A program made the position numbers and the translations under genes. From Eledone cirrhosa (Eukaryota), in the NCBI GenBank assembly GCA_964016885.1, contig OZ024745.1, positions 73,222,001 through 73,286,000 of the forward strand: a stretch of DNA of 64,000 nt, read 5' to 3'. Shown here one piece after another: positions 2,415-64,000 of the stretch. The notes beneath the pieces are model-generated. The model was not told where the DNA came from. It did no database searches and saw only the letters and a program-made list of their open reading frames with translations. Every line of letters begins with the position of its first letter. The stretch's first letter is position 1.

Positions 2415-5430
<3,016 letters not shown>

Positions 5431-5561
5431 TGGAAAGTTATATTTAAAATTGTTGGGTTACAACTAGTAAATATTTATAACTGATATAAAAGCACTCGAC
5501 AAATATTTGGAGTATATTTACAATATTAAATAAATGGAAACTATATTTATAAAACCATATT

Positions 5562-5627
5562 TATTTCATTATATATATTTCAGGGATATCATATTAACAA
5601 TATGCTATGCCTTCCTCAGACAAAATA
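5562..5627 (-). ncRNA. Type I hammerhead ribozyme (mirror copy of 5801-5866)
   Basis: Reverse complement of 5801-5866. Confidence 0.65.
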
Positions 5628-5800
5628 CAATATAAACAGTTTTATAGATAAATAGATTCGACATACCGTAACAACATCGACTTGCATTTGAAGAGGTTGA
5701 TTTGGCAGGTTGATTTGGACTGCCAAATCAACCTCTTCAAATGCAAGTCGATGTTGTTACGGTATGTCGAATCTATTTATCTATAAAACTGTTTATATTG

Positions 5801-5866
5801 TATTTTGTCTGAGGAAGGCATAGCATATTGTTAATATGATATCCCTGAAATATATATAATGAAATA
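5801..5866 (+). ncRNA. Type I hammerhead ribozyme
   Basis: Stem I TATTTTGT/ATGAAATA, core CTGAGGA (5809-5815), long stem II AGG..CATATT-GTT-AATATG..CCT, GAAA (5847-5850), palindromic TATATA, then TA. Confidence 0.65.
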
Positions 5867-5909
5867 AATATGGTTTTATAAATATAGTTTCCATTTATTT
5901 AATATTGTA

Positions 5910-7080
<1,171 letters not shown>

Positions 7081-7488
7081 TGGGAGAGACGGCCCCTTAA
7101 CCTTTGTCAAGGTAGAATGCTAGGAGAAGGAAAACTCTGATATAACACCTGCAACCCTGATGGTATCCAATGATGTTGACTTGTTCTTCTTTTTGGTAAA
7201 TATCATCTTGGTTAAGAGAGTGGGACTGGCTTTGTGCAGTGCCTTTGCTAACTATAAAAGCTTCACGGCACAGGCATTGCTTTATATCTAGAGATCTCTC
7301 TGCACTTGTCGTCACATGGTACCATGGGCCTAGTACTATGTGTCAATAATTGTCACAAGTGTAGTGTTTGTACCAGAGTTTTCAAGTCGCTGGCTGGACT
7401 AAAGTCACATTCGTTCAGCGCATCGGTAGGAGTTCTCCTACATGGATATAATGTAGTGGCCATACTCGAAAGCGAGTTGGCAGCCACC
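7081..7488 (+). mobile_element. Non-autonomous RTE-derived element, copy 1 (5'-truncated)
   Basis: RTE-like 5'UTR motif AGGAGAAGGAAAACTCTGA; C2H2 remnant [17 protein letters not shown]; ends GGCAGCCACC like four other copies. Confidence 0.75.
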
Positions 7489-7489
7489 A

Positions 7490-9236: not shown

Positions 9237-9571
9237 ATCATCATTTCATTTTACGTCCACCTTTCCCTGCTTGCAAGGGTGGGACGGGAACTGATTCTGG
9301 CTTGATTTCTACAGCTGGATGCCCTTCCTACCACCAACCTCATTTACAGTGAGTGCTGGGTGCCTTTTTGCTGTGGCACCTCTACGACCACTTTGCAGTG
9401 GAATGATATGGACCCCAGTCCCTATCATCTCATTTCTACAGCTGAGTAAACTGGAGCAATGTGAAATAAAGTGCCTTGCTCAAGGAAACAACACATCACC
9501 CAGTCTGAGAATTGAACTCACAACCTTTCGATTGCAAGGCCAATGCTCTAACCACTAAGCCATGTGCCTCC
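9237..9571 (-). mobile_element. tRNA-derived SINE with RTE-derived 3' tail
   Basis: Minus strand head GGAGGCACATGGCTTAGTGG (A box) and GAGTTCAATTC (B box); central CCTTGAGCAAGGCAC; 3' half matches the RTE 3'UTR (AGGAAGGGCATCCAGCTGTAGAAA..GGACGTAAAATGA). Confidence 0.85.
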
Positions 9572-9578
9572 ATATGTG

Positions 9579-15272: not shown

Positions 15273-15668
15273 TTGGATTAAATGCTCTGAAATAGCGATA
15301 TATATGTGAAGATAGACATAGAATATTCGAAAATATTCTGTATGTTTATAATAAACATTTTGAAGACCTAATCGCTATAGAATAGAATCCAATTTCTAAT
15401 TTCTGCCGGACCGGCAACCGCTCTTTCAAACCAGTTCCTGTACACAGCTAAGTATTCTATAAGTCTCTAGCTGTGTCATTCTCGATAAGAGCACTGGATA
15501 TGTAATCCTGAAGATTTCTAATAAGAATGAAACGCGTAGGTTACTTCCCTTGCTTTTATCGAGAATCTAATTGTAATACGTGACGTATTCTATTCTATAG
15601 CGATTAGGTCTTCAAAATGTTTATTATAAACATACAGAATATTTTCGAATATTCTATGTCTATCTTCA
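15273..15668. mobile_element. ORF-less Penelope-like cassette with inverted arms and a central hammerhead
   Basis: 82-bp inverted arms 15307-15388 and 15587-15668, short tail 15273-15306, (TA)n flanks. Confidence 0.75.
15478..15566 (+). ncRNA. Minimal type I hammerhead ribozyme with extended stem I
   Basis: GTAATC-CTGAAGA-T TTCT aata AGAA T-GAAA-CGCG-TA-GGTTAC; outer 16-bp helix ATTCTCGATAAGAGCA/TGCTTTTATCGAGAAT. Confidence 0.85.
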
Positions 15669-18924: not shown

Positions 18925-19101
18925 CATAAACATATATACATATATATACATAAGGATTAGAATACTGGAGCGTGTTTGAGTCAAACACCCTCTTCGTATT
19001 ATAGAAATGTCAGTAAAAGGTATAGCTCAATGCAGTTAAACAGAGCCGAAAAATTAAGAGAGTAAAACAAAAATCCTTTAAAACATCAAAAGTTTTTATT
19101 A

Positions 19102-19139
19102 GCCGACAATGTTTCGTCCTATTAAGGACCCATCAGGGC
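19102..19139 (-). ncRNA. Hammerhead ribozyme with core substitution CTGATGG
   Basis: GCC-CTGATGG-GTCCT taat AGGAC-GAAA-CATTG-TC-GGC. Confidence 0.7.
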
Positions 19140-19468
19140 AATCAAAACAACAAGAGGTAATTTCGGCAGATACAAGCCAGAAACTCTGAAGAATATGGAG
19201 TTTACATACACTAATGTTTTACAAAGATATACTATAATAAAAATGAAGATAAAAATAATAAAATTATAATAACTAAGGATGTAGATAACATTAAGAACCA
19301 TATTACAAATATAGTCCAAAGTCACCAACTTAAATCTAAACAAATTTGGTTATATAGAGCAGGAATTATATATAACACAGTATAATACATTATAATAATA
19401 ATATATCTATACCAACACTGAAATTCCAAATCAAAAATCAAAAGGTACAATATATACATGTATATATG

Positions 19469-19505
<37 letters not shown>

Positions 19506-20491
19506 TACAATACACATATCTATTTTCTATTACACAGAAATTAAGCCCTATTGGAAGTTTGAACATCAAAAATATCAAAAATAAGCATGGTAATAGTGAA
19601 AATAATGCTAACACATCCACCCAATATACATGAGGCAATAATTACAAGAAACACTTATAATAAATAATAAACAACAAAATTATATAATACAATACAATAT
19701 AATAAAGTAGAATATATATAATAATATATATAATCTCCGGTTAATTTACAGAAACAATATAGATGTCACAGTGAAATACAATGATAAATTGTTAACATTA
19801 TATTAACAATTACCATAAGCAATATGTACAACATGATTCATACTGGGTTACATAATAAATGGGGAAATATCCATCATATAATATAATACAATAATACTAA
19901 AAAAAACTATATTGGTACAGGGAACAATTATGATGTTACAGAAAAAATATGTTGTTACAGAAAAAATATAGACATCTAACATGATATGTAAAGTCTAAAT
20001 ACCATAATGTTACATATTACAATATTAAAATATTAAAATAATATAAAGTTTAACTATCTTAATGTTATATATAATAAACGGTAAGTAATAAGGATCTATA
20101 TCATAATGTAATATATTTTAAAAATTGGCATATAATATATAAATAAATACTTATAAAATTTCAAAGTTAGTAGACAGACATGTGTTGATGAGTGAACGAA
20201 GCCAGAATTTCAGTGTTGGTATAGATATATTATTATTATAATGTATTATACTGTGTTATATATAATTCCTGCTCTATATAACCAAATTTGTTTAGATTTA
20301 AGTTGGTGACTTTGGACTATATTTGTAATATGGTTCTTAATGTTATCTACATCCTTAGTTATTATAATTTTATTATTTTTATCTTCATTTTTATTATAGT
20401 ATATCTTTGTAAAACATTAGTGTATGTAAACTCCATATTCTTCAGAGTTTCTGGCTTGTATCTGCCGAAATTACCTCTTGTTGTTTTGATT

Positions 20492-20529
20492 GCCCTGATG
20501 AGTCCTTAATAGGACAAAACATTGTCGGC
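20492..20529 (+). ncRNA. Hammerhead ribozyme with GAAA changed to AAAA
   Basis: GCC-CTGATGA-GTCCT taat AGGAC-AAAA-CATTG-TC-GGC. Confidence 0.7.
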
Positions 20530-20602
20530 TAATAAAAACTTTTGATGTTTTAAAGGATTCTTTGTTTTACTCTCTTAATAAATATACATATATATATATA
20601 CA

Positions 20603-20729: not shown

Positions 20730-23700
20730 CGGAGGAAATGTGGTAAGGAACCAGGTGGACCATAACGCACCAAAGTACTCAATACTTAGTGTAGTAGAGT
20801 GGGTAATAGGAACGAGTAGGACCCCGATGGCTGAGCTCAAGCCGTTTCGACGGCTAATTCTGGACTAAATGAACATTTTTATCCTGGTATTTGAATAGAC
20901 GAGCTTCTTAAGGGGTAATTCCATATATGGTAAAAGTGATTGTCACAAGGATTGGTCAAAAGTTTGTTGTTTAGACATAATAATTCTATCATGGCAATTT
21001 GTGGGTGAAAGGGGTAGCTGAACCTGCCAGTAGGAGAAAAAGGGAGAAGGGGTGGAGGAGACCCAGTCATGCGTTGATAGTGCTGACTACAGCTGGGCAT
21101 GAGGTCAAAGAAGATACTAGGGAGGGGAAGTCGAGACAATAAGTAAAACAATATGGGGTAAATATATAGAAAAATACCGAGTGTTAAAAAGCAATTATAT
21201 GTAAAAAAAAAAAAACAATTTCTGTTTACTACGACCTAAGTCTCTCACTGGTACTGCTAGGCTAAAGAAAGGTTTACTAGGTGGGACGGAATTATAATGA
21301 GACCCTTTTAAGAGGTATAAGCAATAAACCGAGTATATCTTACGGTGACGGGTCAACAAGTGAGGGGCCAAAATACTAAAGAAACTACCACGAAATAATA
21401 AATAAAGGTTTCTACCCCATGCACAAGGCCAGCAACCACCCAGTGCAAAAAAATAAACTTATACGAAATAATAATTCAGAATCCTGAAAAAGAATACTAA
21501 TACTATCTCTAAGGGTGCCGCCACGATACAAAAATTCTAGTGCAAACTACATAAATGCTCGTACGAAGTATATGTAAAATTTGATACGGAAAATTAATTC
21601 AGAACCCCCCCCCCCCCCCCCATAAACAAATACTGATATACGAGAAATTAAAGCAAAGATACCACTAAGAAATATAGAAAGCACGGAAAAGGGCCAGCGA
21701 TCGGATAAGAAGGCAAGTATCCGGGGTCTAACATATCTGCTATAAAAAGCGGAGTCGGCCAAATCTATCATAGAATAGGGGAAGAAGGTGGGGTACCGAG
21801 GCTACAAAGGACCGAAGGGCTGCCTCGGGTGGGCGAGAAAATGAAAAGGACGACGACAAAGAAAGAGGACTGGGGTGGAAGGACTAGGGAGGGATGGGGG
21901 GAAGAAGGAAATATAGAGGAAGCGATAAAAAGATATAAAAGAAGATCTTATGTCTACCTTTGCAAGCAGGGGTTACCCATTACAAAATCGGCAAGTGGGG
22001 TGTTATAGCCCTAGTCTACCCCCCGGGTCATTATGGGGTTTGAGGGCGAGATAAGTCCTATGCAATCTGTGTTTACATGCAGTAACCAGTTCATCTTTCT
22101 TGTTTAGGAATTGGTCCGTCGAAAACAGCATTTGTAAAGTTTCCTCCGAGCATAAATTGCACGGACGGTGTCCTCCCATGTAAGAGTTGGCTCTGGACAG
22201 TAAGCTCAAAGTGAGATCATAGGTAATGTTGTTATCCTTGAGGTCCCATATGTGGCCCGAAAGTGTAGTGGCATGACGCCGAGCTGGGTTTCAGAAGGTA
22301 TGTCTGTGTTGGTATAGCTGGGTCTTGAAGTCACATGCGGTTAATCCTATATAAGCTTTGTTGGAGGTGTCCGTCCTCACCTTGCACTGGTAGATCACAT
22401 TACGATCTCTGCATCTGTTGTCGAGGGGGCAAAGGGATCCATCAGGACAGATGCACCTCCTGGTCGGCTCTCCACTGCTATTTAGGTTATTTCTTCCATA
22501 GGGGTTGAGTTTTTTGTTGTTAGAGGAGACAATGTTTTGTGCAAAGTTTGGTGTGGTGCTGTAAGAGAGTTTGATGGTATTTTTGTTAATTATGTTGTGG
22601 TAGCGGTGTTGTAGTGGGAAGTGTTTTTCAATGAGCCTAAAGAAGATTTTCTCGATTGTCACCTCAGGATTGAACCATGTTACATTGCGTGAGCGGCGGT
22701 GTCGCCTGCTGGTTCCGCTAAGGGAAGCTGGACAGTAGGATATTTCCTCCCGGAAACCACTCCGCTTGAGGGCCTGGTTGTAATAAGGCGCATGTTCCTT
22801 GAATATCTGCTCATTAGCTGACAAACGGGATATGCGGAGGGAAATGTTTTTAACCAGGTTATTGGTGATGTTCCTAGGATGGTTTGACCGGCGGTGGATG
22901 TAGTGCAGGTTGTCGTTAGGTTTCCTGTATGGGTAGTACAGATCATTATCGAGGTCAAGGGTAACGTCCAGGAAGTTTACTCGGGTCAGGGACGTTTGTA
23001 GGGTTATTTTAAATCCCCAGTCGCGGAAGAAGCTGATTAATTGTTTATGGACCCGATCTGTACTACTGGGGTTGTACCCTTTAAGGGTAAGGAGCCCATC
23101 ATCACGGTACAATCCACCGCCGAATGCAGGAAACATATCGGTGAGTTTGGCTATTAGGAATAATCCTATAAGATCTGTGACCTCAGCCGAATCCGTCGCA
23201 CCCATGCTGACGTCGAAGGGTGAGTCGGGAGCTCTCTTTATTCATTTGGAGTTGTCGAAGAGTAAGAATGTCTTCCTGGTGTGGAGGATGATGTTTCTTT
23301 CCTGGTCGGTGATGGGCACAAGTGCTTCGTCAAAGTCGAAGGCAGCCATAAGTAGCGGTAAGGTGATTGAATTAATTTTCCGTATCAAATTTTACATATA
23401 CTTCGTACGAGCATTTATGTAGTTTGCACTAGAATTTTTGTATCGTGGCGGCACCCTTAGAGATAGTATTAGTATTCTTTTTCGGGATTCTGAATTATTA
23501 TTTCGTATTAGTTTATTTTTTTGCACTGGGTGGTTGCTGGCCTTGTGCATGGGGTCGAAACCTTTATTTATTATTTCGTGGTAGTTTCTTTAGTATTTTG
23601 GCCCCTCACTTGTTGACCCGTCACCGTAAGATATACTCGGTTTATTACTTATACCTCTTAAAAGGGTCTCATTATAATTCCATCCCACCTAGTAAACCTT

Positions 23701-24164
23701 TCTTTAGCCTAGCAGTACCAGTGAGAGACTTAGGTTGTAGTAACCAGAAATTGTTTATTTTTTTTACATTTAATTGCTTTTTAACACTCTCGGTATTTTT
23801 CTATATATTTACCCCATATCATTTTACTTATTGTCTCGACTTCCCCTCCCTAGTATCTTCTTTAACCTCATGCCCAGCTGTAGTTGGCACTATCAACGCA
23901 TGACTGGGTCTCCTCAACCCTCTCTCCCTCTTTCTCCTACTGGCAGGTTCAGCTACCCCTTCCCCCCACAAATTGCCATGATAGAATTATTATGTCTCAA
24001 CAACAAACTTTTGACCAATCCTTGTGACAATCACTTTTACCATATATGGAATTACCCCTTAAGAAGCTCGTCTATTCAAATACCAGGATAAAAATGTTCA
24101 TTTAGTCCAGAATTAGCCGTCGAAACGGCTTGAGCTCAGCCGTCGGGGTCCTACTCGTTCCTAT
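20728..24164 (-). mobile_element. Penelope-like element (Naiad-like), 5'-truncated, with inverted pLTR
   Basis: About 795-bp inverted repeats 20806-21601 and 23368-24164 around an RT plus GIY-YIG ORF; tail 20728-20805. Confidence 0.9.
22003..23367 (-). pseudogene. PLE reverse transcriptase (C-terminal half) plus GIY-YIG endonuclease, one in-frame TGA
   Basis: FDVSMGATDSAEVTDLIG, LYRDDGL, NFLDVTL, VTWFNP, CPLDNRC..VIYQC..YIGLT, and after the TGA at 22291 LSGHIW..CNLCSEE..LNKKDELVTACKH. Confidence 0.9.
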
Positions 24165-26916: not shown

Positions 26917-28190
26917 CTGGGTGTAACAGGTAAATTGGGACAATTGAAATATCTTTATTATAATTGGTATAACTTGGAAAATCCAAACACTGCAAATTTT
27001 ATGTTTATGCCAATTTATTATGGATTGTTTAGTACTTATTTCAGTTCAATGTAACTGCCATTTGCTTTCTTTACCAGTTCAATCCATTTAGTAAATGATG
27101 CACATGCTTTAACTATTTCTTCCTTTTTCATTTTACTGAATGCTCGCTTGATCGAAGCCTTCAGTGAAGACACACAGTTGTGAGAAGTTGCCTTGGATAT
27201 TACTTCAACTACGCCCCATAGCCAAAAATCACACTGATTCAAATCTGGTGAGCTAGAGGGCCAGATATCTTTAGGGACAAACATGGGCAATTCCTTCTTC
27301 AAAAACTCTTGCACACCTTTTGAAGAATAGGTGGGCATGGGGTCCTGTACAAACATGACTTGACATGCATCATAATGCTTTCTATTCCAAAGCAACAAAA
27401 CTTTTAAAATTTTGAGTTTCTCTGCTGGTTGATTTTAAGACCTGCTTCAATAAAATAGGGCGTCAATTTCCCATCACTTGTAACAGCTCCAAAGATCATA
27501 ATGGAAGCTGAATTCTTGCTATGCATAGCTGTAGGAACTTGAAAAGAGTTGTATGCTATCACTTGTGAGTTTTGACAATTTGCAACTTCATCTACCATGA
27601 ACTTTATTCCATCCACAAAGATGCATCTCCACCATGACATTTCTGATAATTAAGAAGTTTGGGACATCTTTCAGCTCAAATGGCTTTGGAGCGGGTAGTT
27701 AGGATGTTGCAGTGTTTCCTCATGTAATATTTCATATGAAGGTTTGTCTCACAGCCCTTAGAAAGGGTCATTTTACTGATTCCTCGATCTTGAGCCCACT
27801 TTGCCATCGATTTTGACTGGTTCAACTCAATTGATCTTTTAAGTCTTGTAAAGAGGCGAGGTGTATGTTTTGGATCATTGCAAGGACTTGAGGCTTTCTC
27901 TGAAAATCCTGACTTTTCTTCAAATTGGTTACAACTCTATAAACAGTAGATTTGGCATACTTTGTGACTCTAACAATCTCTCCAGTACTGTTGTCAGTGC
28001 AGAATAGTTCGGCAATTATACTTCTATGGTTTAATTCTTTATTAACATTCATAATTTATTCAACCTAAAATAAAAAAATAGCATCAGTGATTATCAAGCT
28101 GGTAATATTTAAAATTTAGATTTCAACAAAATCTATACAATTAGAAATATATCAAGTTGAAATTTGTCCCAATTTACCTGGTACATCCTG
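26917..28190 (-). mobile_element. Tc1/mariner DNA transposon, DD37D (maT-type), decayed
   Basis: TA on both sides; imperfect TIRs CTGGGTGTAACAGGTAAATTGGGACAA / TTGTCCCAATTTACCTGGTACATCCTG; about 1.27 kb. Confidence 0.9.
27036..28052 (-). pseudogene. Frameshifted DD37D transposase
   Basis: HTH-like AKSTVYRVV; FVQD-(37 aa)-D with WPSSSPDLNQCDFWLW; split over several ORFs. Confidence 0.88.
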
Positions 28191-30700: not shown

Positions 30701-30814
30701 TTCATCCTTATCAAATTCATTTATCAAATAATGGTAGTTAAGATGTGATTAAATCACCATAATTGTTTATTGCATTATATATATTTCTGTTACATGGTTA
30801 TTCAGATGATTACG

Positions 30815-30940
30815 CAATCATTGGTGCAGTTATGCAATCATTGTGATACAATATGCCGGTTGTCATGCATGACCATCAAGTAGATGGACGTGCATGACCA
30901 CCGGTATATCACAATGATTGCATAACTGCACCAATGATTG
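30815..30940. repeat. 126-bp imperfect palindrome (MITE-like hairpin)
   Basis: CAATCATTGGTGCAGTTATGCAATCATTGTGATA ... TATCACAATGATTGCATAACTGCACCAATGATTG. Confidence 0.8.
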
Positions 30941-31029
30941 GTAAGGATAAAATCTATCTGGCTGGTGTAATCTATCTGGCTATAGGTAATCAAGTGATTG
31001 TCTCATTATTTGAAGTTTCTGTTACAGAT

Positions 31030-31786
31030 AGTTAAGTCATTGGCATCACAGAATTCCAGGATACTGAAACCTTCCTTGTTTCTAGTACCAAATCCATAAC
31101 CTCCATGGATCCCATCATAGCCATCATAGCCCATCAATGTCACCAGCAATGATTATGTAATCATTGCCAACTATTGCAAGGCAATGTGTCAGTGTAAATC
31201 AGGATGTTGTTGGAGATAACTGTGTCTGAAATGATGCCAGTACACTTAGCGTCACTGATGTTCAGAAAAAGGAGGCCTGGAAATGTCACTATGAGAGACT
31301 GATGAATGTTGAGAATGAATGGGAGAGAGAGACACTACCCCCAGCAGACCCAACAGTGGGAGTTTGTTATTGAGGTCGATGACTATAGAGTCAAAGAAGC
31401 AATTAAAGAAATGAAAAGTGTTAAGGCCAATGGACCATCAGGGATAGTCGCTGAGATGTTAAAGGCACTAAAGGAACTAAACTAGTTACACACATTGTCA
31501 ATCAAGTTATATATGGCGAAGTCATACCACAAAGACTGGTCCAGCAGTATACTTGTAAATTGTTACAAAGCTAAAGGGGATGCTCTGGAAAGGAGCACTT
31601 ATAGGGGCATAAAACTGATGAATCAGGTTATGAAAGTAACAGAAAGAGTGCTAGCACAACTAATTAGAGAAAGAGTCAAATTAGATGAGATGTAGTTTGG
31701 TTTTGTGCCTGGGAAAAGTACAATAGATGCCCTCTCCTTAGTGAGATAACTACAAGTGAGGTTCTTAGAGAAGAATAAGCCACTCC
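31030..31786 (+). pseudogene. Old RTE fragment: RT piece on +, preceded by an inverted APE endonuclease piece
   Basis: YRGIKLMNQVMKVTERVL..LDEM*FGFVPGKST on +; GYDGIHGGYGFGTRN on minus at about 31070-31135. Confidence 0.75.
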
Positions 31787-35929: not shown

Positions 35930-36244
35930 GTACGTATGGATTTACCGAGCGTTTATTATAATGCTCGGTTTGTTTGTAAACAAACATCCTGAATTAAGCT
36001 GTACAGTGTTTAGCAACCATTGTTGCCCTTTTGTTCAACACTGACAAAGGAACGATGTACTAGTTTCAAGCTTATTAGCTATCGTTCGATTAACTCACTC
36101 GATATGCAAATTAGGCTTCTCGCCCATTAATATGCATAAGGAAAGTATATACTTTCAGATGTTCAATCATCTGGCAGAAAGGTATATGGTGTTGACGATA
36201 GCTAATAAGCTTGAAACTAGTACATCGTTCCTTTGTCAGTGTTG
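35930..36244. mobile_element. ORF-less Penelope-like cassette with inverted arms and hammerhead
   Basis: 50-bp inverted arms 36036-36085 and 36195-36244, tail 35930-36035. Confidence 0.7.
36186..36228 (+). ncRNA. Minimal hammerhead with TTGACGA core
   Basis: ATGGTG-TTGACGA-T AGCT aata AGCT T-GAAA-CTAG-TA-CATCGT. Confidence 0.7.
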
Positions 36245-36399: not shown

Positions 36400-36939
36400 G
36401 TCGTCTAAACTGGCAACCCCACCAAGGTTTCTTGGTGAGGAGGGTGACTTTGGACATCCTGCAGGACTAAAAACAAAACCTGTCAAAGGGCAAAGGAGCT
36501 CTTAAGAGTCAATGGCCATCCAAAATCACCGGGAGAGATGACCCCTTAGCCTTTGTCAAGGCAGAATTCTAGGAGAAGGAAAACTCTGATATAACACCTG
36601 CAACCCTGATGGTATCCAATGATGTTGACTTGTTCTTCTTTTTGGTAAATATCATCTTGGTTAAGAGAGTGGGACTGGCTTTGTGCAGTGCCTTTGCTCA
36701 CTATAAAAGCTTCACGGCACAGGCATTGCTTTATATCTGGAGATCTCTCTGCACTTGTCGTCACATGGTACCATGGGCCCAGCACTATGTGTCAGTAATT
36801 GTCACAAGTGTAGTGTTTGTACCAGAGTTTTCAAGTCGCTGGCTGGACTAAAAAGTCACACTCGTTCAGCGCATCGGTAGGGGTTCTCCTACATGGATAT
36901 AAAGTAGTGGCCGTACTCGAAAACGAGTTGGCAGCCACC
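36400..36939 (+). mobile_element. Non-autonomous RTE-derived element, copy 2
   Basis: Near-identical to 43245-43856; ends GGCAGCCACC. Confidence 0.8.
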
Positions 36940-36944
36940 ATATA

Positions 36945-38024: not shown

Positions 38025-38434
38025 TTGGGAGAGATGACCCCTTAGCCTTTGTCAAGGCAGAATTCTAGGAGAAGGAAAACTCTGATATAACACCTGCAAC
38101 CCTGATGGTATCCAATGATGTTGACTTGTTCTACTTTTGGTAAATATCATCTTGGTTAAGAGAGTGGGACTGGCTCTGTGCAATTCCTTTGCTCACTATA
38201 AAAGCTTCATGGCACAGGCATTGCTTTATATCTGGAGATCTCTCTGCACTTGTCGTCACATGGTACCATGGGCCCAGCACTATGTGTCAATAATTGTCAC
38301 AAGTGTAGTGTTTGTACCAGAGTTTTCAAGTCGCTGGCTGGACTCAAAAGTCACACTCGTTCAGCGCATCGGTAGGGGTTCTCCTACATGGATATAAAGT
38401 AGTGGCCGTACTCGAAAACGAGTTGGCAGCCACC
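38025..38434 (+). mobile_element. Non-autonomous RTE-derived element, copy 3
   Basis: Same 5' start (TGGGAGAGA) as copy 1. Confidence 0.8.
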
Positions 38435-39759
38435 ATATATATATGTATATATATGTATATATGTATATATATATGTATATATATGTATATATGTATATAT
38501 GTATATATGTATATATGTATATATATATATATATGTATATATATATGTATATATATATGTATATATGTATATATATATGTATATATGTATATATGTATAT
38601 ATATATGTATATATATATGTATATATATATGTATATATGTATATATATATGTATATATATATGTATATATATATGTATATATGTATATATGTATATATAT
38701 ATGTATATATATATGTATATATGTATATATATATGTATATATATATGTATATATATATATATATATGTATGTATATATATATATGTATGTATATATATAT
38801 ATACATGTATATATATATATATGTATATATATATGTATATATATATATGTATATATATATATATGTATATATATGTATATGTATATGTATATATATGTAT
38901 ATATATATGTATATGTATATGTATACATATGTATATGTATGTATGTATATATATATGTATGTATATATATATGTATGTATATATATATATATGTATATGT
39001 ATATGTATGTATATATATATATATGTATATATATATGTATATGTATGTATGTATATATATATGTATATGTATATGTATGTATATATATATATATGTATAT
39101 ATATATGTATATGTATGTATGTATATATATATGTATATATATATGTATATATATATATGTATATATATATATGTATATATATGTATATATATATATGTAT
39201 ATATATATATGTATATATATATATGTATATATATATATGTATATATATATATGTATATATATATATGTATATATATATGTATATATATATATGTATATAT
39301 ATATATGTATATGTATATATATATATATGTATATGTATATATATGTATATGTATATATATGTATATGTATATATATGTATATGTATATGTATACATATAT
39401 ATATGTATATGTATGTATGTATATATATATATGTATGTATATATATATATATGTATATATATATGTATGTATATATATATATATATATGTATATGTATGT
39501 ATGTATATATATATGTATATATATATGTATATGTATGTATATATATATATGTATATATATGTATGTATGTATATATATGTATATATATATGTATATATAT
39601 GTATATATATATATGTATATATATATATGTATATATATATATGTATATATATGTATATATATATATGTATATATATATATGTATATATATATGTATATAT
39701 ATATGTATATATATATGTATATATATATGTATATATATATGTATATATATATGTATATA
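38435..39759. repeat. Imperfect (TA)n microsatellite
   Basis: Direct reading. Confidence 0.98.
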
Positions 39760-41849: not shown

Positions 41850-42202
41850 GTATATATATATGTATATATGTATATATATATATGTATATATGTATATATA
41901 TGTATGTATATATGTATATATGTATATATGTATATATGTATATATATATGTATATATATATGTATATATGTATATATATATGTATATATATATGTATATA
42001 TATGTATATATATATGTATATATATATGTATATATATGTATATATATATGTATATATATATGTATATATATGTGTATATATATGTATATATATATGTATG
42101 TATGTATGTATATATGTATATATATATATATGTATATATATATGTATATATATATGTGTATATATATGTATATATATATGTATATATGTATATATATATG
42201 TA

Positions 42203-43124
42203 TAACTTTGAATAACTTTGGCCAGTATTGGCCCAGGCAATGTCTAACTTAATAGCACCACCTGGCGAAGTCTTTCAATTCAGGATTTGGGCACCATGGC
42301 CCATTCGAGAAGAGAATTACTGTTTGCGGAGACATATCCGGGTGTGGGTGGTTTGTCCGGGATTACTTGGAGGAATTTGTCCAAAGACTTCTTGAATTTT
42401 GTGTGGTCAGTTTCTGTTTTGACGTGTCCTGGTGTGATGTTGAAGAGAGCAGGGCCGATTGAGGTGAAATAATTGTGCCGTATTGTTGTTATGAGTTGCG
42501 ATTTAGATTTTTGAATGGGACGGATATCACGGGGCCCAAGCCTTGGGTGTATCTTGAAGGCGATGCCAACATCATTTGGGCAGTGATGATGGAACATTTT
42601 CCACATCATGCAGATAATATAACGCTCATGGCGACGTTGGAGTGAGTCAAGTTTCAGGTTTTCTAATCGACCCCAGTAGTCAAGGTCTGACATGCCATCT
42701 ATCTTTTTCGTGATTGCCCTTTGAGGAGCTTCAAGTTTCATGATACTTTGTTTCGTGTGGGGAGACCACAGTGGACAACAGTATTCAAGGTGTGGTCGGG
42801 CAAAAGTAGAGAAGAGAAGGATAATGGTGCGGGAATCTCTCGACTGGAAGGTTCTGAGGATCCAGGAACACATTCTGCGGGCCATGTCAACTTTGCTGCT
42901 TATATGCGTGGTCCAGCTTATGTTGCTGTCCACGGTTACTCCCAAGTCTCTGATGTTGTTAGATGCCACGAGAGTTTCCCCGGAGGGAAGGGAGTACTGG
43001 AGTTTCAGAGCATCCTCTTTTCCAAAGTGGATCAGTTCGAATTTGTCTTCGTTCAGTAACATGTTGTTCTTTTCCGCCCATTGGGTAACAGCCAGTAGGT
43101 CTGACTGAAGGCTTATCCGGCCAT
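42203..43124 (-). mobile_element. CR1-group LINE, 3' fragment
   Basis: ORF 42280-43062 ([23 protein letters not shown]); TTCAAAGTTA-type tail. Confidence 0.88.
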
Positions 43125-43244: not shown

Positions 43245-43856
43245 CGGGTCAGGTCACCAGTTGGTGCTACTGGTAACATGTATCACAGTACAACCTGTCT
43301 CATGGTCGGGTCGTTGGCGACTAAACTGGCAACCCCACCAAGGTTTCTTGGTGAGGAGGGTGACTTTAGACATCCTGCAGGACTAAAAACAAAACCTGTC
43401 AAAGGGCAAAGGAGCTCTTAAGAGTCAATGGCCTTCCAAAATCACCGGGAGAGATGACCCCTTAGCCTTTGTCAAGGCAGAATTCTAGGAGAAGGAAAAC
43501 TCTGATATAACACCTGCAACCCTGATGGTATCCAATAATGTTGACTTGTTCTTCTTTTTGGTAAACATCATCTTGGTTAAGAGAGTGGGACTGGCTTTGT
43601 GCAATGCCTTTGCTCACTATAAAAGCTTCACGGCACAGGCATTGCTTTATATCTGGAGATCTCTCTGCACTTGTCATCACATGGTACCATGGGCCCAGCA
43701 CTGTGTGTCAAATAATTGTCACAGGTGTAGTGTTTGTACCAGAGTTTTCAAGTCGCTGGCTGGACTAAAAAGTCACACTCGTTCAGCGCATCGGTAGGGG
43801 TTTTCCTACATGGATATAAAGTAGTGGCCGTACTCGAAAACGAGTTGGCAGCCACC
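43245..43856 (+). mobile_element. Non-autonomous RTE-derived element, copy 4 (longest 5' end)
   Basis: About 610 bp; RTE-like 5'UTR fused to C2H2 remnant [19 protein letters not shown]. Confidence 0.8.
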
Positions 43857-44060
43857 ATATATATATGTATATATATGTATATATATATGTATATATATGT
43901 ATATATATGTATATATATATGTATATATATATATATGTATGTATATATATATGTATATATATATGTATATATGTATATGTATATATATGTATATATATAT
44001 ATGTATATATATGTATATATATATATATACATATGTATATACATATATATATATATATGT

Positions 44061-47818: not shown

Positions 47819-49533
47819 TAAAAAACATAACCTCCAAAACAACATAATGTCCCTCATCAACAATCAGAGAAGAGCTGAAGAGGCCCTCTAATTGATGAAA
47901 ATGGCACTCTTCAAGACAATGCTAAAACCATGGGTGAGATACTGCAGAAACAATACTGCTCTGTTTTCAGCAATCCTGATATGGCCGATCTGGGCTGTAT
48001 CGGCGATGTTACTCCCCATTACACCTTATCGGACATAACGTTTGGCGCCCCTGATGTCTTGGCGGCAATAAAGGAAATCAAGCATAATTCAGCAGTAGGT
48101 CCCGATAGGTTCCCTGCTTGTGTCTTGAAGGCGTGTCAACACCAACTTGCTTCTCCTCTTGCCAATCTGTGGCGGAACTCACTGGATGCTGGATATGTGC
48201 CAGAAAACCTTCTATCCCAGTCTGTTGTCCCAGTTTTCAAAAAGGGAAACAAATCCCTTGCTGTGAATTACCGTCCAATCTCACTCACCTCTCATATCAT
48301 TAAGGTATTTGAGCGAGTGGTGAGATCGCGAATGACCCACTTCCTTGAGAGTAACAATATGCTGAACTCCAACCAGCTGCAGTGGATCAAGAGCTTCCTG
48401 TCAAACAGAACCCAACATGTTGTAGTTGAGGGAGTCAAATCAAGCCCAGCCAAAGTCAGTAGTGGGGTGCCACAAGGCACTGTGTTGGGCCCACTTCTCT
48501 TCATCATCTATATTAATGACATCACTGACATCATCAAACACAGCAACATTAAAATTTTCGCTGATGATTCCAAGCTCCAAAAGGTCATCAATGGCGTGGA
48601 TGACCGGATAGGCCTTCAGTCAGACCTACTGGCTGTTACCCAATGGGCAGAAAAGAACAACATGTTACTGAACGAAGACAAATTCGAACTGATCCACTTT
48701 GGAAAAGAGGATGCTCTGAAACTCCCGTACTCCCTTCCCTCCGGGGAAACTCTCGTGGCATCTAACAACATCAGAGACTTGGGAGTAACCGTGGACAGCA
48801 ACATAAGCTGGACCACGCATATAAGCAGCAAAGTTGACATGGCCCGCAGAATGTGTTCCTGGATCCTCAGAACCTTCCAGTCGAGAGATTCCCGCACCAT
48901 TATCCTTCTCTTCTCTACTTTCGCCCGACCACACCTTGAATACTGTTGTCCACTGTGGTCTCCCCACACGAAACAAAGTATCATGAAACTTGAAGCTCCT
49001 CAAAGGGCAATCACGAAAAAGATAGATGGCATGTCAGACCTTGACTACTGGGGTCGATTGGAAAACCTGAAACTTTACTCACTCCAACGTCGCCGTGAGC
49101 GTTATATTATCTGCATGATGTGGAAAATGTTCCATCATCACTGCCCAAATGATGTTGGCATCGCCTTCAAGATACACCCAAGGCTTGGGCCCCGTGCTAT
49201 CCGTCCCATTCAAAAATCTAAATCGCAACTCATAACAACAATACGGCACAATTATTTCACCTCAATCGGCCCTGCTCTCTTCAACATCACACCAGGACAC
49301 GTCAAAACAGAAACTGACCACACAAAATTCAAGAAGTCTTTGGACAAATTCCTCCAAGTAATCCCGGACAAACCACCCACACCCGGATATGTCTCCGCAA
49401 ACAGTAATTCTCTTCTCGAATGGGCCATGGTGCCCAAATCCTGAATTGAAAGACTTCGCCAGGTGGTGCTATTAAGTTAGACATGGCCTGGGCCAATACT
49501 GGCCAAAACATTTCAAAGTTCAAAGTTAAAAGT
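47819..49533 (+). mobile_element. CR1-group LINE, 5'-truncated, two internal deletions
   Basis: ORF 47930-49444 nearly identical to 57148-59016 but missing 61 aa including LDFSKAFD. Confidence 0.92.
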
Positions 49534-53816: not shown

Positions 53817-54182
53817 TTAATTAGGTTTATAATATTTAAATGTTTTTTTTAGTTTATGATTACACGATATAATTAATTCCTGTCGTTTATTTAATAGGAT
53901 ATCCTTAGATTTCATTATTTCAAATAGTTCTTGGGAACATAATCTACATTCATTTCTATTATTTTGATAAGGGGTGGCTCTTTTGAGCACACTCCAGGTC
54001 AAATCATATTCTATATTCTTATTTTTATAACTATTGATTTTTTCTGCTAGAGATGTTGTATTAGCCAGTGCGGCATTTTTAAAACTATGCTTATGGGTAT
54101 TAAACCTTGTCTTAAAATTGTTAGAGGTAGCTCCTATATATGAGCAAATAGAATCTTTAGCTCTAGATAGAAGTGGCCACAA
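53817..54182 (-). pseudogene. PLE GIY-YIG endonuclease C-terminal fragment
   Basis: [47 protein letters not shown], homologous to 22003-22400. Confidence 0.85.
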
Positions 54183-54211
54183 AAATAGATTAGAATATAT
54201 ACCTTATTTTG

Positions 54212-55633: not shown

Positions 55634-55820
55634 CAGGAGAACATGATATGAAGGCTAAAAAAACACTTATTGATAGTGCAGTTTTAAATCAACATATGAA
55701 AAACTGTAGAGTGCTTCTTATCCGATATCTGCATTGCTTTATTGTACTACAATAAAACTCACCTCCTACATATATGTATATATATACATATATATATATG
55801 TATATATGTATATATATATG

Positions 55821-55870
<50 letters not shown>

Positions 55871-55873
55871 TGT

Positions 55874-55914
<41 letters not shown>

Positions 55915-55956
55915 TATGTATATATATATGTATGTATATATATGTATATATATATG

Positions 55957-56001
<45 letters not shown>

Positions 56002-56078
56002 GTATATATGTATATATATATATGTATATATATGTATATATATATGTATATATATGTATATATATGTATATATATATG

Positions 56079-56111
<33 letters not shown>

Positions 56112-56166
56112 GTATATATATGTATATATATATGTATATATATGTATATATATGTATATATATATG

Positions 56167-56201
<35 letters not shown>

Positions 56202-56403
56202 GTATATATATGTATATATATATGTATATATATGTATATATATATGTATATATATATGTATATATATGTATATATATATGTATATATATATGTATATATA
56301 TATGTATATATATATGTATATATATATGTATATATATATGTATGTATATATATATGTATATATATATGTATATATATATGTATATATATATATATGTATA
56401 TAT

Positions 56404-56650
56404 ATATAGATGAGATTCTACAGGACTAGAACTGTTTCATTCATTAGAAATCATCAGGAATCTGATGGGATTAGAAATCATCAGGGATTAGAAATCATCA
56501 TTAGAAATCATCAGGGATTCCTGATGATTTCTAATGAATGAAACAGTTCTAGTCCTGTAGAATCTCATCTATATTAAAACTGTTATACTCTGCTATGTAT
56601 TGAGTACCTTACTTACTGTGGTTACCTCCGATTCAACCCGGAATAACGTA
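56404..56650. mobile_element. ORF-less palindromic Penelope-like cassette with a reiterated spacer
   Basis: 59-bp inverted arms 56404-56462 and 56516-56574, tail 56575-56650. Confidence 0.75.
56514..56557 (+). ncRNA. Minimal hammerhead (mirror copy on minus at about 56421-56462)
   Basis: GGATTC-CTGATGA-T TTC taat GAA T-GAAA-CAGT-TC-TAGTCC. Confidence 0.65.
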
Positions 56651-56656
56651 CATATG

Positions 56657-56692
<36 letters not shown>

Positions 56693-56694
56693 CG

Positions 56695-56755
<61 letters not shown>

Positions 56756-57060
56756 GTATATGTATATATATGTATATATATGTATATGTATATATATGTA
56801 TATATATGTATATATATGTATATGTATATATATGTATATATATGTATATGTATATATATGTATATGTATATATATGTATATATATGTATATGTATATATA
56901 TGTATATATATGTATATATATGTATATATATGTATATATATATATGTATATATATATATATGTATATATATGTATATATGTATATATATGTATATATATA
57001 TATGTATATATATATATATGTATATATATGTATATATATATATGTATATATATGTATATA

Positions 57061-59050
57061 TAACTTTGAATAACTTTGAAATGTTTTGGCCAGTATTGGC
57101 CCAGGCCATGTCTAACTTAATAGCACCACCTGGCGAAGTCTTTCAATTCAGGATTTGGGCACCATGGCCCATTCGAGAAGAGAATTACTGTTTGCGGAGA
57201 CATATCCGGGTGTGGGTGGTTTGTCCGGGATTACTTGGAGGAATTTGTCCAAAGACTTCTTGAATCTTGTGTGGTCAGTTTCTGTTTTGACGTGTCCTGG
57301 TGTGATGTTGAAGAGAGCAGGGCCGATTGAGGTGAAATAATTGTGCCGTATTGTTGTTATGAGTTGCGATTTAGATTTTTGAATGGGACGGATAGCACGG
57401 GGCCCAAGCCTTGGGTGTATCTTGAAGGCGATGCCAACATCATTTGGGCAGTGATGATGGAACATTTTCCACATCATGCAGATAATATAACGCTCACGGC
57501 GACGTTGGAGTGAGTAAAGTTTCAGGTTTTCCAATCGACCCCAGTAGTCAAGGTCTGACATGCCATCTATCTTTTTCGTGATTGCCCTTTGAGGAGCTTC
57601 AAGTTTCATGATACTTTGTTTCGTGTGGGGAGACCACAGTGGACAACAGTATTCAAGGTGTGGTCGGGCGAAAGTAGAGAAGAGAAGGATAATGGTGCGG
57701 GAATCTCTCGACTGGAAGGTTCTGAGGATCCAGGAACACATTCTGCGGGCCATGTCAACTTTGCTGCTTATATGCGTGGTCCAGCTTATGTTGCTGTCCA
57801 CGGTTACTCCCAAGTCTCTGATGTTGTTAGATGCCACGAGAGTTTCCCCGGAGGGAAGGGAGTACGGGAGTTTCAGAGCATCCTCTTTTCCAAAGTGGAT
57901 CAGTTCGAATTTGTCTTCGTTCAGTAACATGTTGTTCTTTTCTGCCCATTGGGTAACAGCCAGTAGGTCTGACTGAAGGCTTATCCGGTCATCCACGCCA
58001 TTGATGACCTTTTGGAGCTTGGAATCATCAGCGAAAATTTTAATGTTGCTGTGTTTGATGATGTCAGTGATGTCATTAATATAGATGATGAAGAGAAGTG
58101 GGCCCAACACAGTGCCTTGTGGGACTCCACTACTGACTTTGGCTGGGCTTGATTTGACTCCCTCAACTACAACATGTTGGGTTCTGTTTGACAGGAAGCT
58201 CTTGATCCACTGCAGCAGCTTTCCAGTGACACCAATATTGGACAGCTTTCTCAGTAGAATGTTATGATCAACCCTGTCAAAGGCCTTGCTGAAATCAAGG
58301 TAGATAACATCAGTGTTGGAACCCTCTCCCAAGGCTCTCAAAATGTCATCAAAGTGATGCAGTAGTTGCGTCAGGCAATCCCTTCCATTACGGAATCCAT
58401 GCTGGTTGGAGTTCAGCATATTGTTACTCTCAAGGAAGTGGGTCATTCGCGATCTCACCACTCGCTCAAATACCTTAATGATATGAGAGGTGAGTGAGAT
58501 TGGACGGTAATTCACGGCAAGGGATTTGTTTCCCTTTTTGAAAACTGGGACAACAGACTGGGATAGAAGGTTTTCTGGCACATATCCAGCATCCAGTGAG
58601 TTCCGCCACAGATTGGCAAGAGGAGAAGCAAGTTGGTGTTGACACGCCTTCAAGACACAAGCAGGGAACCTATCGGGACCTACTGCTGAATTATGTTTGA
58701 TTTCCTTTATTGCCGCCAAGACATCAGGGGCGCCAAACGTTATGTCCGATAAGGTGTAATGGGGAGTAACATCGCCGATACAGCCCAGATCGGCCATATC
58801 AGGATTGCTGAAAACAGAGCAGTATTGTTTCTGCAGTATCTCACCCATGGTTTTAGCATTGTCTTGAAGAGTGCCATTTTCATCAATTAGAGGGCCAACA
58901 GTAGAGCCAGTGATTTTGTGTTTTTTTGCAAATGAAAAGAACACTTTGGGATTGAGTTTGATCTTCTCAATGGCCCAGGCCTCTTCAGCTCTTCTCTGAT
59001 TGTTGATGAGGGACATTATGTTGTTTTGGAGGTTATGTTTTTTAATCTCT
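57061..59050 (-). mobile_element. CR1-group LINE, 5'-truncated, young
   Basis: Uninterrupted RT ORF, short 3'UTR, (TTCAAAGTTA)2 tail. Confidence 0.93.
57148..59016 (-). CDS. LINE ORF2 reverse transcriptase (622 aa open; endonuclease lost by 5' truncation)
   Basis: [58 protein letters not shown]. Confidence 0.9.
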
Positions 59051-61219: not shown

Positions 61220-61675
61220 GAAAAAGAGATGAAATCGAAAATGCAACTGAAGTCTTATTTTTCTAAAAAATATATATATTTATTTGGTTCCTTTACCGGT
61301 TTCGCAGTTCTTCTGCTTTTCAAAAGGTGAGTTGAGATGGAGGGTCTGTGGGATGTGATAAAAACCATGTGGGATGTGAGAAAAACCATGTGAGAAAAAC
61401 CACAGACCCTCCATCTCAAGAGAAAAACCATGTGAGAAAACCATGTGGGATGTGAGAAAAACCATGTGAGAAAAACCACAGACCCTTCATCTCAACTCAC
61501 CTTTTGAAAAGCAGAAGAACTGCGAAACCGGTATAGGAACCAAATAAATATATATATTTTTTAGAAAAATAAGACTTCAGTTGCATTTTCGATTTCATCT
61601 ATTTTTCTTTATACTTTCACTCGTGTAGGACACCTCGGTTATTTTTCATTTTGTAAAAATAACCTCACTTTCTAA
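61219..61675. mobile_element. ORF-less palindromic Penelope-like cassette with a reiterated spacer
   Basis: 133-bp inverted arms 61219-61351 and 61476-61608, tail 61609-61675. Confidence 0.75.
61500..61537 (+). ncRNA. Variant-core hammerhead-like motif (mirror copy on minus at 61290-61327)
   Basis: CCTT-TTGAAAA-GCAG aagaa CTGC-GAAA-CCGG-TA-(T/A)AGG. Confidence 0.6.
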
Positions 61676-61701
61676 TGTATATATATATATATATATGTAT
61701 A

Positions 61702-61780
<79 letters not shown>

Positions 61781-61908
61781 ATATATATATATATATATGT
61801 GTATATATATATGTATATATATGTATATATATGTATATATATGTATGTATATATGTATATATATATGTATATATGTATATATGTATGTATATATGTATAT
61901 ATATTTAT

Positions 61909-62545
61909 GTCAGGTCACCAGTTGGTGCTACTGGTAACATGTATCCCAGTACAACCTGTCTCATGGTCGGGTCGTTGGCGACTAAACTGGCAACCCCACC
62001 AAGGTTTCTTGGTGAGGAGGGTGACTTTGGACATCCTGCAGGACTAAAAACAAAACCTGTCAAAGGGCAAAGGAGCTCTTAAGAGTCAATGGCCATCCAA
62101 AATCACCGGGAGAGATGACCCCTTTAGCCTTAGTCAAGGCAGAATTCTAGGAGAAGGAAAACTCTGATATAACACCTGCAACCCTGATGGTATCCAATGA
62201 TGTTGACTTGTTCTTCTTTTTGGTAAATAGCATCTTGGTTAAGAGAGTGGGACTGGCTTTGTGCAGTGCCTTTGCTCACTATAAAAGCTTCACGGCACAG
62301 GCATTGCTTTATATCTGGAGATCTCTCTGCACTTGTCCTCACATGAGCCCAGCACTATGTGTCAATAATTGTCCTACCATGGGCCTAGCACTATGTGTCA
62401 ATAATTGTCACAGGTGTAGTGTTTGTACCAGAGGTTTCAAGTCGCTGGCTGGACTAAAAAGTCACACTCGTTCAGCGCTTCGGTAGGGGTTATCCTACAT
62501 GGATGTAAAGTAGTGGCCGTACTCGAAAACGAGTTGGCAGCCACC
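61909..62545 (+). mobile_element. Non-autonomous RTE-derived element, copy 5
   Basis: Near-identical to copy 4, with a small internal duplication near 62347-62410. Confidence 0.8.
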
Positions 62546-63020
62546 ATATGTATGTATATATGTATATATATGTATGTATATATATATATATATGTATGTA
62601 TATATATGTATATATATATATGTATATATATGTATATATATGTATGTATATATATGTATATATATGTATATATGTATATATATATATATATGTATATATA
62701 TGTATATATATATGTATATATATGTATATATATGTATATATATGTATGTATATGTATGTATATATATGTATATATATGTATATGTATATATATGTATATA
62801 TATGTATATGTATATATATGTATATGTATATATATGTATATATATGTATATGTATATATATGTATATATATGTATATATATGTATATATATGTATATATA
62901 TATATGTATATATATATATATGTATATATATGTATATATGTATATATATGTATATATATATATGTATATATATATATATGTATATATATGTATATATATA
63001 TATGTATATATATGTATATA

Positions 63021-64000
63021 TAACTTTGAATAACTTTGAAATGTTTTGGCCAGTATTGGCCCAGGCCATGTCTAACTTAATAGCACCACCTGGCGAAGTC
63101 TTTCAATTCAGGATTTGGGCACCATGGCCCATTCGAGAAGAGAATTACTGTTTGCGGAGACATATCCGGGTGTGGGTGGTTTGTCCGGGATTACTTGGAG
63201 GAATTTGTCCAAAGACTTCTTGAATCTTGTGTGGTCAGTTTCTGTTTTGACGTGTCCTGGTGTGATGTTGAAGAGAGCAGGGCCGATTGAGGTGAAATAA
63301 TTGTGCCGTATTGTTGTTATGAGTTGCGATTTAGATTTTTGAATGGGACGGATAGCACGGGGCCCAAGCCTTGGGTGTATCTTGAAGGCGATGCCAACAT
63401 CATTTGGGCAGTGATGATGGAACATTTTCCACATCATGCAGATAATATAACGCTCACGGCGACGTTGGAGTGAGTAAAGTTTCAGGTTTTCCAATCGACC
63501 CCAGTAGTCAAGGTCTGACATGCCATCTATCTTTTTCGTGATTGCCCTTTGAGGAGCTTCAAGTTTCATGATACTTTGTTTCGTGTGGGGAGACCACAGT
63601 GGACAACAGTATTCAAGGTGTGGTCGGGCGAAAGTAGAGAAGAGAAGGATAATGGTGCGGGAATCTCTCGACTGGAAGGTTCTGAGGATCCAGGAACACA
63701 TTCTGCGGGCCATGTCAACTTTGCTGCTTATATGCGTGGTCCAGCTTATGTTGCTGTCCACGGTTACTCCCAAGTCTCTGATGTTGTTAGATGCCACGAG
63801 AGTTTCCCCGGAGGGAAGGGAGTACGGGAGTTTCAGAGCATCCTCTTTTCCAAAGTGGATCAGTTCGAATTTGTCTTCGTTCAGTAACATGTTGTTCTTT
63901 TCTGCCCATTGGGTAACAGCCAGTAGGTCTGACTGAAGGCTTATCCGGTCATCCACGCCATTGATGACCTTTTGGAGCTTGGAATCATCAGCGAAAATTT
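63021..64000 (-). mobile_element. CR1-group LINE, 3' part (runs off the window)
   Basis: Appears identical to 57061-58040. Confidence 0.93.

Follow-up and report, generated by a model that had tools for sequence, protein, structure and literature searches.

Structure of the Locus

The window (the whole 64-kb stretch of Eledone cirrhosa DNA analyzed here) is eukaryotic repeat-rich DNA, about 43% of which is masked by TRF; it carries RT-coding LINE remnants (Pfam RVT_1), and microsatellites dominate the repeat search over 50–64 kb. At 56404–56650, two arms complementary at 59/59 positions form a perfect inverted repeat of 59 bp around a 53-nt spacer, with (TA)n microsatellites on both flanks (Table 1). 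The outer ~5 nt of the left arm (ATATA) are common to the element and the (TA)n target. Because the right element continues ~76 nt past its arm, an origin of the right arm by snap-back copying of the left one was rejected. The extension is likely the PLE "tail" between two start sites of reverse transcription.

Table 1. Features of the inverted insertion and of its flanks (positions in the window).
Feature	Position	Strand	Basis or remark
Left flank, (TA)n/(TATG)n microsatellite target	55771–56403		
Left (short) arm	56404–56462	−	Inverted copy of the element's first 59 nt, including the hammerhead; 59/59 complementarity
TGATG, snap-back extension of the left arm end	56463–56467	+	Hairpin CATCAG-GAAT-CTGATG, 1-nt primer; DNA fold; required by both parses
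GGATT, matches the start of the right end	56468–56472	+	Last letters shared with copy 1
Copy 1, 16 nt, direct repeat of 56443–56458	56470–56485	+	
One G and copy 2 (13 nt; 14 nt with the shared A at 56500)	56486–56499	+	
Copy 3, 16 nt	56500–56515	+	On the minus strand, 18-bp hairpin with the right arm, 4-nt loop
Minimal type I hammerhead motif	56514–56566	+	Motif scan; predicted from sequence
Right arm, shared part of the long copy	56516–56574	+	Complementarity to the left arm
Extension of the right copy only, ~76 nt	56575–~56650	+	
Right flank, (TA)n microsatellite target	56651–57059		

According to the motif scan, the predicted hammerhead is composed of stem I (56514–20/56560–66), CUGAUGA (56521–27), stem II (56528–39), GAAA (56540–43), stem III (56544–57), and the cleavage site UA (56558–59), and the left arm has a hammerhead motif on the minus strand at 56457. 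Hence, the preliminary description of the copied piece as antisense to a hammerhead core agrees with the scan, but not with Rfam, which at the gathering threshold yields no hammerhead match (the sole hit is tRNA-like, at 9501–9564), nor with the RNA minimum-energy fold, which differs from a hammerhead (z −0.5 and −1.6). Minimal PLE hammerheads have been described as requiring dimers (PMC4209133).

Endonuclease-positive (EN+) PLEs have been described as inserting head to head into TA targets, with a hammerhead and a tail on one side only (PMC8557442; PMC3846280), and all of these features are seen here: a minimal type I hammerhead motif (by the scan), a head-to-head inverted copy with a one-sided tail, and (TA)n on both flanks, so that the PLE context proposed earlier is supported. 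In contrast to EN+ PLEs, where the reported extension is 30–40 nt, it is ~76 nt here, and the locus has no ORF. Because of the latter, assignment to PLEs rests on anatomical features; the element is likely a Penelope-type (PLE) retrotransposon, while a non-autonomous hammerhead element mobilized by a PLE is equally possible (10.64898/2026.07.22.740005). A MITE is ruled out by the hammerhead in both arms and the one-sided extension. Cleavage of AT-rich DNA and extension of both target strands, with two internal start sites, have been shown for the anole PLE protein (PAc) (PMC11167929).

No second copy of the family is present in the 64-kb window, and one text file from the supplement of each of PMC13282606 (octopus repeat annotation) and PMC8557442 contained no match. 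A pattern covering the focal and the 15.5k hammerheads had no match in a collection of prokaryotic contigs, which is uninformative for a eukaryotic family. The element at 15.5k has only the core and stem II in common with the hammerhead studied here and thus yields no consensus.

Composition of the Spacer

Read in order, the spacer (56463–56515) is made up of TGATG, GG, a first 16-mer, a single G, a 13-mer, and a repeat of the 16-mer, and thus mixes orientations and unit lengths. Exact copies of the arm, at least 13 nt each (16, 13 or, with the shared A, 14, and 16 nt), account for 45 out of 53 nt. It had been suggested earlier that the spacer consists of three further copies of a 14–17-nt piece from the end of the left arm. 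This observation is confirmed, with exact coordinates and three exact copies of somewhat different sizes; the rest of that account needs amendment, as 8 nt (TGATGGG and one G) are not copied, TGATG is a sense-strand 5-mer lying before the three copies in the opposite orientation, and the source of the 16-mer (left arm, 56443–56458) stops 4 nt before the arm end.

ATTAGAAATCATCA occurs five times in the 64-kb window, always at this locus, namely, at 56443 in the left arm, at 56470, 56487, and 56500 in the spacer, and on the minus strand in the right arm. Among 200,000 mononucleotide shuffles of the spacer, just 5,613 had at least one 9-mer match to the arm. Neither the arms nor the copies contain substitutions, all 45 copied nucleotides being error-free. 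According to TRF, GGGATTAGAAATCATCA is a 17-nt tandem unit, and the final junction is spanned by a 20-nt direct repeat. The hairpin involving copy 3 is formed by the inverted repeat 56498–56515/56520–56537 (DNA fold −18 kcal/mol, z −8.5). GGATT may be an aborted copy of the opposite end, provided that GG at 56514–56515 is part of the right end.

Reconstruction of the Junction

The region 56404–56650 can be rebuilt exactly from DNA templates alone in seven steps with no untemplated base (route A). The microhomologies are 1, 1, 2, 3, 3, 2, and 3 nt, the extensions are 3–16 nt, and four primings are in cis and three in trans. On this route, snap-back of the left end on a 1-nt primer gives 5 nt, and another 5 nt are then taken from the right end. 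The right end in turn folds back on itself (2-nt primer, 16 nt), is primed again in cis (3 nt, 11 nt), makes an attempt on the left end (3 nt, 3 nt), has one more cis priming (2 nt, 14 nt), and is finally joined to the left end through 3 nt, with resolution by AAT:ATT pairing. All pieces map at most ~22 nt from the two ends, and the 5-nt snap-back precedes the copies rather than coming last. The earlier suggestion of repeated re-priming on a short local template is supported.

Taking the three long pieces from RNA by realignment (route B) also gives an exact rebuild in seven steps with no untemplated base, four of the seven steps still being DNA-templated. Both routes presuppose that GG at 56514–56515 belongs to the right end of the element. 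Since they are mirror images and equally exact, the template (RNA or DNA) cannot be named from the sequence; likewise, the DNA and RNA routes are equivalent for the junction at 5.7k, with two steps each. A purely RNA-templated spacer is ruled out, as the sense-strand pieces remain. The cheapest automatic parse was the one allowing the already made spacer to be re-copied (five segments, no untemplated base), but its cost was ad hoc, and our conclusions rest on the explicit step-by-step reconstruction.

Route B bears on the interpretation offered in the preliminary description, that is, RNA-templated, telomerase-like realignment followed by snap-back. Here, the PLE RT extending the short-arm cDNA would re-copy the single-stranded hammerhead core of the RNA, with stem I as the template boundary. 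A short segment next to a helix is copied repeatedly both here and by telomerase and DRT10, and PLE RTs are related to TERT, with which they group (PMC12632851). The RNA route rebuilds the junction exactly, two out of three copies are the 16-mer ending at the stem I base, one re-priming (UGA...UGA, 3 nt) is a true A–B–A′ realignment, and one realignment of 2 nt would likewise account for the spacer at 5.7k. Telomerase-like slippage has reportedly been invoked already for LINE 3′ tails (UnaL2).

An alignment segment and a template boundary are what define repeat addition by telomerase and DRT10 (PMC12632851). The focal junction departs from the former, and on the latter the observations point both ways. 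Instead of an alignment in each cycle, the template/alignment (A–A′) homology is 0 nt for the 16-mer, although DRT10 is reported to need such homology to synthesize its repeats (PMC12632851), and direct realignment accounts for one out of three RNA primings, producing a single 13-nt A–B–A′ unit. Instead of uniform head-to-tail units, there are three copies only (16, 13, and 16 nt), with interposed G/GG and the sense-strand 5-mer and with DNA-templated interruptions. As to a fixed boundary, two of the three copies end at the base of stem I, but the arm itself shows the RT reading 4 nt beyond it, and the GG priming site explains the shared endpoint of the two 16-mers as well. Finally, telomerase and DRT10 have a dedicated template RNA, which has no counterpart here, and in the in vitro study of a PLE (PMC11167929), the main text nowhere uses the terms "realign," "template jump," or "non-templated." Given the equally exact DNA-only parse, the DNA templates required in four out of seven steps, and the missing homology of the 16-mer, telomerase-like realignment is poorly supported, and we consider it rather improbable.

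The cheapest automatic parse, even with its ad hoc cost, would agree with a two-stage history, in which a near-perfect palindrome or a junction with one insert formed first and hairpin-induced breakage or replication slippage added the central copies later. The 17-nt tandem unit GGGATTAGAAATCATCA, the 20-nt direct repeat across the final junction, and the abundance of tandem repeats in the window point in the same direction, and such remodeling would account for spacers being confined to flush fold-backs (see below). However, the lack of substitutions in the arms and copies leaves little time for it, the 13-nt unit and TGATG would still require template switches, and a broken hairpin would itself probably be mended through the same kind of alternative end joining. 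For these reasons we regard later remodeling as quite improbable.

Other Inverted Insertions and Junctions in the Window

A scan for local inverted repeats, combined with reading of the regions, yielded seven PLE-type inverted insertions, at 5.4–5.9k, 15.3–15.7k, 19.0–20.6k, 20.7–24.2k, 35.9–36.2k, 56.4–56.65k, and 61.2–61.7k. All seven have a one-sided extension of 34–106 nt (limits set by eye). Hammerhead motifs were found in five out of seven by the scan and in a sixth (19–20k) by comparison of its two arms; the seventh has an RT/GIY-YIG-like frame.

Besides the focal one, two fold-backs are flush-ended. The fold-back at 5426–5909 has arms identical at 190/190 positions, a hammerhead motif in both of them, and, as its spacer, a single re-copy of the arm end, 11 nt long. 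The hammerhead fold-back at 61227–61677 has arms identical at 123/125 positions and a 124-nt spacer with many reiterations of 11–21 nt, an aborted fold-back of 20 nt, and a 50-nt block repeated across apparent junctions. It is a richer example than the focal junction, although its repeats may be natural tandem repeats instead. Its hammerhead core is presumably a U3/A8 variant.

Three of the staggered inverted insertions bear hammerheads (15273–15668, 18952–20574, and 35930–36244). In those at 15k and 36k, the tail is on one arm and the longer 5′ sequence on the other; therefore, neither arm is a copy of the other, and this geometry points to two separately primed cDNAs. The hammerhead at 19–20k, canonical in other respects, is mutated in its core in both arms, and the two mutations differ. 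The insertion at 20732–24157 is a 5′-truncated PLE-like element on the minus strand, with RT (YRDDG), a Cys-rich linker, and GIY-YIG-like motifs broken by stops, a 786-bp inverted copy (96.8%), and an 81-nt tail. Its ORF 22291–23241 (minus strand) has YRDDG and VIY...YIG motifs read by eye, and the Atlas neighbors of this ORF carry RVT_1 (12–56%) and GIY-YIG (12%); the Pfam search gave no family and the PDB search no useful match. Judged by eye, the 22.3k element looks Neptune-like. One of the 37 homologues of the 22.3k ORF is from Argonauta hians. A second remnant of a GIY-YIG endonuclease (53820–54211, minus strand) is 36% identical to the frame 22006–22287 (E 7e-15) and is 5′-truncated into a TA tract; as it lies inside 52.9–54.2k, a mitochondrial origin of that segment is ruled out.

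Reiterated spacers are present at three out of three flush-ended fold-backs and at none of the four staggered ones (p = 0.029; 0.067 without the focal locus), with the reservation that the sample is small and the split post hoc. This is as expected if the trigger is the geometry of the ends. All three flush junctions also have GG(G)A on the sense side (5717–5719, 56514–56516, and 61350–61352), which could reflect addition of C at the RNA 5′ end or merely preferred G:C priming.

In the within-window version of the comparison of PLE and LINE junctions proposed earlier, a direct repeat of at least 10 nt was found at three out of seven inverted elements (eight positions tested, two of them for 19–20k), two out of 20 LINE/SINE junctions, neither being multi-copy, and five out of 323 background tiles. 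The excess at PLE over LINE/SINE junctions has the anticipated direction but is not significant (Fisher p = 0.09, or 0.04 if only the repeat exactly at the LINE junction is counted; 0.22 and 0.12, respectively, without the focal locus), and the classes were made after seeing the data, the scanned spans differ between classes, and the LINE/SINE junctions were placed by eye. The counts leave out the RTE at 32.4k, whose 5′ end was not located, a CR1-type copy running off the window, and the non-inverted PLE remnant at 53.8–54.2k. One of the LINE cases is clear, namely, the RTE copy ending at 2415, which has a perfect, frame-breaking duplication of 29 nt at its 5′ end (2357–2414), single in two related copies.

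Several other repeats of the window have unusual junctions or structures. An imperfect 135-nt hairpin without a hammerhead (30810–30944) adjoins an RTE fragment (30939–31754) with an internal inversion and a 13-nt local repeat. Four copies of a young LINE are 99–100% identical (42202–43120, 47824–49532, 57060–59049, and 63020–64000) and have AACTTTGA-type tails; two of them are truncated at nearly one position (within ~10 nt), and a further feature is an internal deletion in one copy. We take this LINE to be CR1/L2. A tRNA-derived SINE-like element occupies 9284–9572 (Rfam tRNA at 9501–9564, minus strand), its 3′ part resembling the RTE 3′ end. Degenerate DDE transposase-like frames between 17-bp inverted repeats at 26927–28180 (a weak DDE_3 match, below the cutoff) are likely Tc1/mariner. 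Five copies of one more family (7084–7489, 36400–36940, 38026–38435, 43246–43857, and 61900–62540) share one sharp end in TA tracts, and one copy has a 36-nt internal duplication (62333–62409).

The three flush-ended loci also bear on two further explanations. The spacer could be built into the consensus of the family or belong to a master copy moving as a unit, and natural tandem repeats may indeed be present at 61.4k; but the three families are unrelated and each spacer derives from its own arm ends, the focal spacer is antisense to the ribozyme core of its own element, and the left arm ends directly in the TA target, all of which makes this account very improbable. We deem a read chimera or an assembly error at the palindrome just as improbable, although inverted structures of PLEs are known to trouble assemblies (PMC8557442): neither the focal region nor the rest of the window contains an N, coherent microhomologies link the copies, which are exact, three loci show the pattern, each with the geometry of its own element, and the 190-bp fold-back with its 11-nt spacer is cleanly resolved.

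Origin of the Spacer

The favored reading is that the spacer is the scar of host polymerase-theta-type iterative joining of two near-identical cDNA ends of the likely PLE, and this reading is given an even chance. Judging by PLE biochemistry, the element would cut the (TA)n site and prime cDNA on both strands, with start sites ~76 nt apart. Both cDNAs would then halt where the hammerhead has its 5′ edge, no more than ~2 nt apart (the flush ends are seen, their cause is conjecture), leaving two nearly identical 3′ overhangs unable to pair. Given the reconstruction, which is sufficient in itself, a repair polymerase of presumed identity would, in each of seven rounds, prime on 1–3 nt, extend briefly, and let go, now snapping back on its own strand and now turning to the opposite end, until the AAT:ATT pairing holds and the gap is filled. 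The repeats would be functionless, a mere footprint of this process.

The junction has the hallmarks of polymerase-theta end joining (TMEJ): the insert is copied from near the junction, from within ~20 nt of the break; each priming and the resolution involve at least 1 nt of microhomology (given the assignment of GG at 56514–15), the primings being of 1–3 nt; and the tracts are short (below 25 nt; here 3–16 nt), made both in cis and in trans, and iterated, with overlapping copies. In Caenorhabditis elegans, POLQ-dependent inserts are primed by 1 nt, come mostly from within 10 bp of the break, are mostly shorter than 25 nt, and sometimes contain several overlapping copies of one flank (PMC5068794). 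Purified polymerase theta switches among cis snap-back, trans, and untemplated extension, and with Mg2+ mostly arrests after ~10–20 nt (PMC4912351). P-element breaks, where, as would be the case here, the two ends are identical inverted sequences, involve no RT and nevertheless yielded multi-copy inserts of 42 and 49 nt, in a mus308 mutant of the helicase region (PMC2895639). Loss of PolQ reduces the share of retroelement cDNA 5′ junctions with extra nucleotides from 67% to 4–20% (PMC3280974). Within the window, the split between flush and staggered inversions, the 50-nt block repeated at 61.4k, and the 29-nt re-copy at the RTE junction speak for this reading as well. Polymerase-theta repair had been named in the preliminary description among the things that would refute a telomerase-like footprint, and it agrees with published junctions, including those of P-element breaks (PMC2895639).

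Other observations weigh against polymerase theta. The RNA route is equally exact and takes the same number of steps, the 29-nt re-copy at the RTE has no obvious microhomology, and the higher frequency of reiterations at PLE inversions than at LINE/SINE junctions and background tiles would also fit an element-specific activity. About one in three POLQ inserts contains an error (PMC5068794), compared with 45 error-free copied nucleotides here, and the largest P-element inserts come from a mutant allele (PMC2895639). Unlike in typical TMEJ, the ends here would be retroelement cDNAs, and the RNA template would perhaps still be present.

The same chemistry could have been performed by another enzyme, the PLE RT, acting as a DNA-dependent polymerase that joins the ends by repeated snap-back and template switching; we consider this unlikely. 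It relies on the same exact DNA-only parse, and PLE junctions seem enriched for reiterations in the window. A bacterial RT with polymerase-theta-like activities has reportedly been found. Self-priming has been proposed from palindromes at PLE head-to-head junctions (PMC3846280), and cDNA snap-back is a recognized class of R2 junctions (PMC11371274). In R2/PRINT snap-back 5′ junctions and in the retrohoming of linear group II introns, the cDNA 3′ end similarly self-primes or gains locally copied bases; in those systems, however, the cDNA is joined to target DNA, whereas here two element ends are joined together, with three rounds. Furthermore, in vitro switches of a group II intron RT add short, mostly A, stretches, and locally copied inserts in vivo are PolQ-dependent (PMC3280974), and our literature search found no description of such an activity for a PLE RT.

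One more possibility, which we hold to be unlikely, combines both templates: the Penelope RT would resolve its own flush head-to-head intermediates by running off at the RNA 5′ end, adding C, and cycling between RNA or fresh cDNA and the partner end, so that the hammerhead core is re-copied up to stem I. A common step of run-off and C addition would agree with the GG(G)A present at each of the three flush junctions. If true, animal genomes would thereby record a natural, relaxed forerunner of the repeat addition seen in telomerase.

Implications

Palindromes at head-to-head PLE junctions have been published already (PMC3846280), as have iterated templated insertions in general; for multi-copy templated spacers at PLE junctions, our literature search, which covered few subscription papers, found no description. 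In the in vitro PLE study, the steps following cDNA synthesis are left unvalidated (PMC11167929), and natural junctions such as this one are relevant to the question of how PLEs form and seal their inverted 5′ structures.

Taken singly, the focal junction is best interpreted as a scar of repair. Two leads deserve a genome-wide count, namely, the common GG(G)A and the contrast between flush and staggered inversions. The window provides a simple, countable rule: iterated templated spacers at flush-ended inversions and none at staggered ones. If this rule is true genome-wide, it would support two separately primed cDNAs and an end-joining polymerase, and would provide many natural junctions to type. 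If, on the other hand, the spacers are the work of the RT and not of POLQ, PLE enzymes would possess an activity that generates repeats, with a bearing on how telomerase arose.
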